Sequence record: PV656001.1
Source: Escherichia phage vB_Eco_ORH_001
Direction: 5' to 3' (one strand)
DNA length: 44,456 nucleotides
Numbering within the stretch: the stretch's first letter is position 1; every line of letters begins with the position of its first letter. The notes under the pieces are model-generated. The model saw nothing but the letters and a program-made list of their open reading frames with translations, did not search any database and was not told the origin of the DNA. The translations under genes and the position numbers were made by a program. This document shows, in pieces, positions 16,050-17,180 of this stretch.

Positions 16050-17180
16050 ATGGCTAATAAGAAAATAACCGACGAACAGTTACAGGAAGAATTGAACGCC
16101 GGGATGAAGAATGTAGACATCGCCCGTAAATACGGCATCTCAGACCGCGTTATTCGTATCCGTAAAGCGAAGCTGGCTAAGAAAGGCGTAGGCCACGGGC
16201 GCGACGTTAGTCACCTCGTCCCGGACGGCTACAAGATTAAAGGCACGTCGTCACTTGTGGATGAGTTCGGCAACACTAAGTTGCAATGGGTTAAGACAGA
16301 CACCGACGCTGAACGTCAGGTCGAGTTGATGAAAGCCGTAATCGAAGGCATGAAGTCGGAGATTACCCCCGTTGCCCCTGTTAAAGCCGTTCGCGCCAAA
16401 CGCGACGACAAGCTACTCAATCTTTACACGGTATCGGATTTTCATCTCGGTATGCTGGCCTGGGCTGACGAGAGCGGTGACGACTGGGATATGAAAATCG
16501 CGGAAGCCCTGTTTTATCGATGGTTCGATGCTGCGTTTCAGAAAGCACCGGACGCGGGCGCAGGAGTTATTAACCTGCTTGGGGACTTCGCCCATTTCGA
16601 TAGTCTTGACGCCGTTACCCCCGAGTCGCGCAATGTATTAGACGCTGATACTCGCTATCAGAAACTGGTACGCTACATGATTCGTATGGTGCGCCGTGTT
16701 GTCGATATGGCGCTAGTCAAACACGGGACTGTGAAACTTCTTGTCGTACAGGGGAATCACGACCCTGTGGGCTCTGTGTGGCTGGCGGAGATGTTCAGTA
16801 CGCTGTACGACAATGAGCCTCGTGTGCTCGTCGATACGTCGCCGGATGTTTACAAGATGGTGCAACACGGAAAAACGACGTTGTTCTTTCACCACGGGCA
16901 TAAAGCACGATTCGACGCTATCGAGCCGGTTATGATTGCCAAGTTCCGCAAAGCGTTCGGCGAGAGTGTTTACAGCTACGCCCACGTAGGCCACCTGCAC
17001 CACCAGAAGATTGTGGAAAGCCGTAACATGATTGTTGAGCAGCACCGCACCCTGGCGGCTAAAGACGCCTACGCCTCTCGCGGCGGATGGATGTCAGGCC
17101 GTAGTGCAAACGTAATTACTTATAGCGCCGAATATGGCGAGGTCGCACGTTTAACTATTTCACCGGAGATGCTGGGATGA
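16050..17180 (+). CDS. calcineurin-like metallophosphoesterase with N-terminal HTH-like domain
   Basis: Phosphoesterase motifs in order: SDFHLG, LGDFAHFD, QGNHDP, FHHGH, GHLHH; N-terminus NVDIARKYGISDRVIRIRKAK looks HTH-like. Confidence 0.75.
   Translation: MANKKITDEQLQEELNAGMKNVDIARKYGISDRVIRIRKAKLAKKGVGHGRDVSHLVPDGYKIKGTSSLVDEFGNTKLQWVKTDTDAERQVELMKAVIEGMKSEITPVAPVKAVRAKRDDKLLNLYTVSDFHLGMLAWADESGDDWDMKIAEALFYRWFDAAFQKAPDAGAGVINLLGDFAHFDSLDAVTPESRNVLDADTRYQKLVRYMIRMVRRVVDMALVKHGTVKLLVVQGNHDPVGSVWLAEMFSTLYDNEPRVLVDTSPDVYKMVQHGKTTLFFHHGHKARFDAIEPVMIAKFRKAFGESVYSYAHVGHLHHQKIVESRNMIVEQHRTLAAKDAYASRGGWMSGRSANVITYSAEYGEVARLTISPEMLG

Follow-up and report, generated by a model that had tools for sequence, protein, structure and literature searches.

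Introduction

We have analyzed a gene that lies at 16050..17180 on the + strand of a 44,456-nucleotide (nt) stretch of DNA from Escherichia phage vB_Eco_ORH_001 (PV656001.1), hereafter the window. Its product joins an N-terminal helix-turn-helix (HTH) to a metallophosphoesterase (MPE) domain, and we refer to it as the HTH-MPE protein. Two phage proteins with which it can be compared have been studied by experiment. The A1 protein of phage T5 is described as comprising an N-terminal DNA-binding domain and a C-terminal predicted nuclease; it is expressed early, and is needed for the degradation of host DNA and for shutoff (10.1101/2022.08.27.505566, PMC7472727). It also co-purifies with RNA polymerase and affects pre-early transcription (PMC7472727). 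The early protein gp48 of the cluster A mycobacteriophage A10ZJ24 is toxic and has phosphodiesterase and DNase activity in vitro; it breaks host DNA, and this helps the phage to evade defense (PMC12287305).

The HTH-MPE protein resembles each of these in part. Like gp48 it is a phage MPE that stands alone and has the five motifs of its superfamily, but gp48 is about 255 amino acids (aa) long, begins motif I at residue 10 and lacks an HTH or hairpin module. With T5 A1 it has in common an N-terminal DNA-binding domain and an NHDxxxSxWL extension, but A1 is a protein of 556 aa with a large middle region. The superfamily fold and the generic motifs are shared with CpdA, Rv0805 and GpdQ. Mre11/SbcD has a capping domain and a Rad50/SbcC partner, where the HTH-MPE protein instead has its N-terminal HTH and a hairpin module. 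Sequence identity to DP1, the small subunit and 3'-5' proofreading exonuclease of archaeal PolD, is 11%, and the oligonucleotide/oligosaccharide-binding (OB) fold and the DP2 partner of that enzyme are lacking. The same HTH-hairpin-MPE architecture, with no structural difference, is found in gp16 (ST16) of coliphage T1, a member of the family phrog_704 (E 7e-155) that is 44% identical over its full length. In the literature we found no experimental work on phrog_704 or the HTH-MPE family.

The best-supported mechanism, to which we give an even chance, is that of a solitary HTH-tethered DNA phosphodiesterase, Mre11/DP1-like in character, that is expressed with early genes.

The metallophosphoesterase domain

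The open reading frame (ORF) starts with ATG and encodes 376 aa plus the stop codon. The sequence GAGGAAG (16038..16044, +) provides a GAGGA Shine-Dalgarno sequence 7 nt 5' to the start codon. The phrog_704 profile matches the protein over its full length (E 1.4e-161), residues 4-375 corresponding to positions 2-389 of the 390 in the profile, and the GenBank product label, 'DNA repair exonuclease', is the PHROG name of that family. The gene is real and intact, and belongs to a very common phage family.

An original prediction, made from the DNA letters alone, held that five MPE motif blocks follow in canonical order after an N-terminal extension of roughly 120 aa that starts with an HTH-like segment. 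This is borne out. We aligned 94 homologues that are 33-50% identical to the HTH-MPE protein, and a structural model built on that alignment with AlphaFold2 (AF2) has a predicted local distance difference test score of 91.4 and a predicted template modeling score of 0.79. The MPE catalytic domain occupies aa 119-376 (16404..17177, +), as judged from Pfam, the alignment, the model, and comparisons of structures and profiles. In the model its core runs from about aa 119 to aa 376, and the chain stops right after the last MPE strands.

All five motifs lie on the + strand. Motif I is SDFHLG (aa 129-134; 16434..16451), within which D130 and H132 are invariant. Motif II, GDFAHFD (aa 178-184; 16581..16601), contains the invariant G178 and D179 together with H182, which is 98% conserved. 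N236 and H237 are invariant in motif III, GNHD (aa 235-238; 16752..16763), as is H282 in motif IV, HHGH (aa 281-284; 16890..16901). In motif V, GHLHH (aa 314-318; 16989..17003), G314 and H317 are invariant and H315 is conserved at 95%. The invariant residues, identical in 94/94 homologues, make up the full complement of ligands for a binuclear metal center plus the motif III histidine, and because all of them are retained we conclude that MPE catalysis is under selection. The ordered set DxH, GD, GNH[DE], H, GHxH is far beyond chance, and with the beta-sandwich MPE fold it places the protein in the calcineurin-like MPE superfamily. Further positions are conserved in a family-specific manner. 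Among them are H182 and D184 (in GDFxHxD), the residues of a loop, TPxSxxxLDxDxR, and, in the N-terminal part, G74 and W80. The Pfam scores of the protein fall below the cut-offs (Metallophos_2, 21.5 against 27; Metallophos, 18.5 against 21.5; GerE, 14.7 against 23.5); relatives pass those for Metallophos, Sigma70_r4 and HTH_11.

The N-terminal modules

The N-terminal region consists of two modules in the AF2 model. A three-helix HTH of the sigma-70 region 4 or LuxR-GerE type spans aa 8-44 (16071..16181, +), its assignment resting on Pfam, profile searches and the model. A disordered linker (aa 45-60) leads from this to a family-specific beta-hairpin plus long helix (aa 61-104; 16230..16361, +), defined by the alignment and the model, in which G74 and W80 are nearly invariant. 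A profile of the N-terminus weakly reaches the HTHs of GerE, RhlR, DesR and sigma-H. The longer variants of the family that we inspected all have an HTH of the same type, and some have two. The HTH is the least conserved part of the protein, with a mean top-residue frequency of 0.41 compared with 0.54 in the MPE domain.

Relationship to nucleases and cyclic-nucleotide phosphodiesterases

The original prediction weighed a CpdA-like phosphodiesterase that would degrade immune messengers against an Mre11-like nuclease, and proposed that the structure be compared with CpdA and Mre11/SbcD. In such a comparison the nearest neighbors of our model are nucleases. Small-molecule MPEs (LpxH 13.8, MJ0936 13.5, YfcE 12.8) are intermediate between these and proteins of the class III phosphodiesterase type, which rank lower (GpdQ 12.0, Rv0805 11.6), and the PPP phosphatases stand at about 9. 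A Foldseek search of the PDB gave no separation (Mre11 2.5e-8, DP1 9.4e-8, Rv0805 9.9e-8). When a profile of the MPE domain alone was compared with PDB sequences there were eight matches, all weak (E 0.024-3.7), and every one was to Thermotoga maritima Mre11/SbcD, a Pseudomonas putida nuclease MPE or Pfu Mre11. The profile alignment pairs the GDFlH of the family, with H182, to GDLLH of T. maritima Mre11. The HTH-MPE protein thus has the GDxxH histidine of motif II that is a feature of Mre11/SbcD, which we take to be the exonuclease-linked His52 of Pfu Mre11.

Neither cpdA nor sbcD was matched in an NCBIfam scan, the SbcD and Mre11 models of Pfam and NCBIfam were likewise unmatched, and the sole matches were to generic Metallophos models below threshold. 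Comparison of the MPE-domain profile with the single Escherichia coli sequences of SbcD and CpdA using hhalign gave no more than a local match to one motif in each case. The class III cyclic-nucleotide phosphodiesterases (CpdA/Rv0805) provide neither a family-model match nor the nearest structural neighbor. Given the structural and profile neighbors, and the failure of Foldseek to discriminate, the scaffold leans toward the nuclease branch, though not decisively. The nuclease half of the earlier proposal is therefore favored, and the degradation of immune messengers disfavored.

A nuclease-like scaffold does not make the protein an orthologue of Mre11/SbcD, and we can rule this out. There is no C-terminal capping domain in the AF2 model, which ends at aa 376, nor does Pfam find SbcD_C or a similar domain. 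No Rad50/SbcC ATPase is encoded among the 82 annotated genes of the genome. We also clustered the neighbors of the gene at 61 loci, and no SbcC-like partner was found as a conserved neighbor; the absence of such a partner that was noted originally thus holds both here and at those loci. Identity with PolD DP1, or with B-subunits generally, is ruled out in the same way, because the model has no OB fold, with only the two-stranded hairpin plus helix at aa 61-104 in its place, and there is no DP2 gene in the genome.

We have also considered T5 A1 and Bxb1 gp47, a homologue of A10ZJ24 gp48, as specific relatives and rejected both, since the similarity is remote or at the level of the superfamily only. 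For Bxb1 gp47 the hhalign probability against the HTH-MPE domain is 13%. The family of A1 (phrog_1745) has invariant residues in the order of the MPE motifs (GD304xH306, HD340, SNH397D, H476, GH501xH503), and many A1 homologues (43-49% identity) carry N-terminal Pfam HTH_23, HTH_38 or CENP-B domains. A1 is therefore probably a divergent protein of the HTH-MPE kind. Searches with A1 gave no Pfam or PDB sequence match, and its profile reaches no MPE chain in the PDB. Phrog_1745 is not among the PHROG matches of the HTH-MPE protein, comparison with the A1 family by hhalign gives probabilities of 29-49% centered on NHDxxxSxWL, and hmmsearch scores do not exceed 18 bits. Because this profile support is weak, we regard A1 as an architectural analogue of the HTH-MPE protein and at most a distant relative.

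A duplicated promoter

The gene is part of a cassette on the + strand, inserted between the tail-tube and chaperone genes so that the - strand tail operon is interrupted. A sigma-70-like promoter (TTGCAC-N17-TACTAT) lies 5' to this island. It is contained in a 38-nt block, CTTGCACACCCCAA[C/T]ATAATAGGATACTATTCACTTA, that is present in two copies differing by one mismatch, at 15748-15785 (+) and at 37326-37363 (-). The second copy heads an operon of small genes of no assigned function, divergent from the replication genes. Both hexamers recur in a third promoter, at 35562-35590 (-). By chance none of these copies would be expected. Conservation of the spacer within the block suggests either a recent duplication or a site for binding a regulator. 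Read at the level of sequence, the duplicated promoter supports a putative co-expression of the HTH-MPE gene with presumed early genes, and the view that the island is expressed early thus gains indirect support.

A proposed mechanism

The joining of a DNA-binding domain to a phosphodiesterase that resembles nucleases makes it more likely that the HTH-MPE protein cuts DNA than that it destroys immune signals. We infer from the features described above that DNA is the substrate and that expression is early, and a role in infection can be suggested on that basis. Transcription would begin from a promoter of the sigma-70 type recognized by host RNA polymerase, duplicated at the head of a presumed early operon, and the same cassette encodes a superinfection-immunity protein. 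The sigma-70-region-4/LuxR-like HTH, on its flexible linker, would most likely hold the enzyme on duplex DNA. The binuclear-metal MPE domain, Mre11/DP1-like down to the GDxxH histidine, would then hydrolyze phosphodiester bonds in the DNA with neither a capping domain nor a Rad50/SbcC clamp to assist it. The most plausible role would be an early attack on DNA or its processing, leading to degradation of the host chromosome and scavenging of nucleotides. Alternatively, the early function could be to clear problematic DNA ends or structures. By analogy, the proposed role would parallel those of T5 A1 and mycobacteriophage A10ZJ24 gp48.

The family and its neighborhoods

The family is already catalogued and very large, and its names are annotation only. 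A tblastn search found a homologue in 2042 of 50,697 phage records (about 4%), nearly full length in 1958 of them. These include Kagunavirus, Jerseyvirus, Dhillonvirus, Drexlerviridae, Webervirus and T7-like phages of Erwinia, together with phages of Vibrio, Campylobacter, Flavobacterium, Rhodobacter and Ruegeria. When 1.84 billion representative sequences were searched exhaustively, 4588 clusters matched at E up to 1e-3. Plasmids hardly ever carry the family (6 of 72,556 records). Using an alignment of 12 family sequences we found 59 loci in bacterial genomes (Pseudomonas, Rhizobium, Brucella, Luteimonas and others), and these look like prophages, having lysozyme and phage accessory genes nearby. 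Labels given to family members in databases are 'DNA repair exonuclease', 'DNA polymerase II small subunit' and 'polynucleotide kinase', the second of which is a transfer by similarity of fold.

In some relatives the gene is annotated in two or more pieces, as in phage Shashou (MK931440), Jk06 and Salmonella phage 36. Shashou has separate 'phosphodiesterase' and 'phosphatase' coding sequences, and the N-terminal half and C-terminal segment of ~117 aa of split relatives form PHROGs of their own (phrog_20703 and phrog_20762). Such split annotations suggest frameshifts, insertions or pseudogenization, and therefore that the gene may be dispensable.

No obligate partner gene was found across the 61 loci, where the commonest neighbor was a phage lysozyme (9 loci). 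In T1 and phage tonijn the gene follows helicase and Dam genes (with VRR-NUC in addition in tonijn) and precedes a holin, and in SECphi4 it lies between a lysin and the small terminase. A Vibrio phage has it after the single-stranded DNA-binding protein and before DUF7768 and dGTP_diPhyd_N, and in phiEa100 it is found among genes for a 5'-3' exonuclease, endonuclease VII, a polynucleotide kinase-like protein and a ligase. In Vibrio, Ruegeria and alpha- and beta-proteobacterial prophage contexts the gene is repeatedly near a deoxynucleoside monophosphate (dNMP) kinase (PF21448), a YfbR-like HD domain, DUF7768 and dGTP_diPhyd_N. A DUF3310-like protein and lysis genes are also close to it in those contexts.

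Alternative functions

These neighbors bear upon the possibility that the protein is not a nuclease but a phosphohydrolase of nucleotides or of nucleic-acid ends, acting in end healing as a 3'-phosphatase or 2',3'-cyclic phosphodiesterase, or in a nucleotide-pool pathway as an esterase of deoxynucleoside tri-, di- or monophosphates. The dNMP kinase recurs at 6 loci and the YfbR-like HD domain, DUF7768 and dGTP_diPhyd_N at 5 loci each, and the polynucleotide kinase-like and ligase genes flank the gene in phiEa100. dADP is a substrate of MPE domains in the PUA-Cal-HAD system of bacteria (10.64898/2026.01.15.699771), and calcineurin-like domains have been proposed in phage RNA-repair neighborhoods (PMC9503650). 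However, the nucleotide-metabolism neighbors are non-obligate, none occurring in more than 10% of loci, and they are not adjacent to the gene in Kagunavirus or T1. The HTH and the Mre11-type GDxxH motif, moreover, point to polymeric DNA. We consider such an activity unlikely.

The protein might be primarily a regulator, with the HTH binding phage or host promoters, for example to turn off early transcription, an effect reported for T5 A1, and the MPE domain being accessory or sensory. The type of the HTH is that of sigma-70 region 4 and LuxR, and phrog_836 ('late transcriptional activator') is matched weakly. T1, Dhillonvirus and many prophages have the gene where it borders on lysis and packaging genes. 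Conservation of the 38-nt promoter block extends to its spacer, and the block could be an operator. A1 of T5 has the association with RNA polymerase and effect on pre-early transcription noted above (PMC7472727). Yet the catalytic residues are invariant throughout the family, as would be expected if catalysis is selected for, and it is the HTH that is least conserved. A primarily regulatory function thus seems to us quite improbable.

We hold just as small a chance for an accessory role in replication or recombination, in which the protein would serve phage DNA replication as a DP1-like 3'-5' exonuclease acting in trans or as a factor like Bxb1 gp47. The structural grounds for setting aside DP1 apply here also, and the likeness to Bxb1 gp47 extends only to the superfamily. 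In addition, the gene is carried both by phages, this one among them, that encode a DNA polymerase of their own and by T1, whose record annotates none.

An anti-defense phosphodiesterase is less probable again, and we think it very doubtful. The MPE domain would hydrolyze immune signals such as cyclic AMP, CMP or UMP, cyclic GMP-AMP (cGAMP), cyclic oligoadenylates or isomers of cyclic ADP-ribose, while the HTH would autoregulate the cassette. HTH-fused anti-CRISPR proteins such as AcrIIA1 provide a model for autoregulation of this kind. Set against this, neither NCBIfam cpdA nor PADLOC gave a match (for PADLOC, no defense family at E up to 1), the closest structural and profile neighbors are nucleases, and a DNA-binding HTH is present throughout the family and is sometimes doubled. 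In a screen for binding or degradation of 3'3'-cGAMP by lysates of cells infected with 32 E. coli phages, including SECphi4, the positives named in the text are confined to SPO1-like phages and the T4 control; SECphi4, which has a 74%-identical homologue, is not among these reported positives, although this is a weak point that concerns one ligand. In its broadest form, a widespread counter-defense enzyme that destroys immune messengers or some other signaling or alarm molecule and is autoregulated by its HTH through the 38-nt block, the idea is the least probable that we have weighed; if true, the known anti-CBASS, anti-Pycsar and anti-Thoeris enzymes would be joined by a class of metallophosphoesterases that T1 and about 4% of sequenced phages carry.

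Other genes of the cassette and a related record

The first annotated ORF of the cassette (15653-15766, +) encodes 37 aa. The first clear gene of the island (15819..16010, +), directly 5' to the HTH-MPE gene, encodes a membrane protein of 63 aa with a superinfection immunity domain of the T4 Imm type (PF14373, E 8e-14). On the 3' side, the ATG of a 66-aa ORF (17177..17377, +) overlaps the MPE stop codon (ATGA). This ORF matches no PHROG or Pfam family and is restricted to Kagunavirus, where it is found in 25 records and adjoins the MPE gene each time; it may act as a partner or modulator specific to this lineage. The last small ORF of the island encodes 76 aa from a GTG at 17367 (17367..17597, +; annotated from 17391). 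Several PHROG families of ~235-250 aa, including phrog_2452 (E 1e-36) and phrog_17613 ('ATPase'), are matched, but in their C-terminal ~70 residues only. The ORF may encode a domain that stands alone, or be what is left of a longer gene. The + strand island is closed by a bidirectional intrinsic terminator, a perfect hairpin at 17602..17621. This hairpin parts the island from a gene for an HNH homing-type endonuclease (phrog_953; 17626-18258, -), which is placed between the tail-tube gene and the island.

The record PV656002.1 (Escherichia phage vB_Eco_Hrm2; Kagunavirus, Guernseyvirinae) is 100% identical to the window over a tested stretch of 2 kb. It is the reverse complement of the window and circularly rotated (window position = 34397 minus record position), and is one base shorter (44455 compared with 44456). 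It annotates a 551-aa antisense ORF at 22885-24540 (+) that has no PHROG match and is probably an annotation error. Left out of that annotation are two minus-strand genes that match the major head protein (22927-23976, -; phrog_247, E 4e-117) and the head scaffolding protein (23979-24734, -; phrog_206, E 1e-55).

Significance

The HTH-MPE family is present in the classic model phage T1 and in many siphoviruses of E. coli, Salmonella and Klebsiella that are candidates for therapy. If its members are stand-alone nucleases of the Mre11 type guided by an HTH, they would show how an Mre11-type active site can work without Rad50. In that event they might identify the enzyme behind the breakdown of host DNA in small siphoviruses. 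Such breakdown bears on defense systems that sense degraded host DNA, such as Metis and PUA-Cal-HAD, and in phage therapy it is relevant to the risk of generalized transduction.
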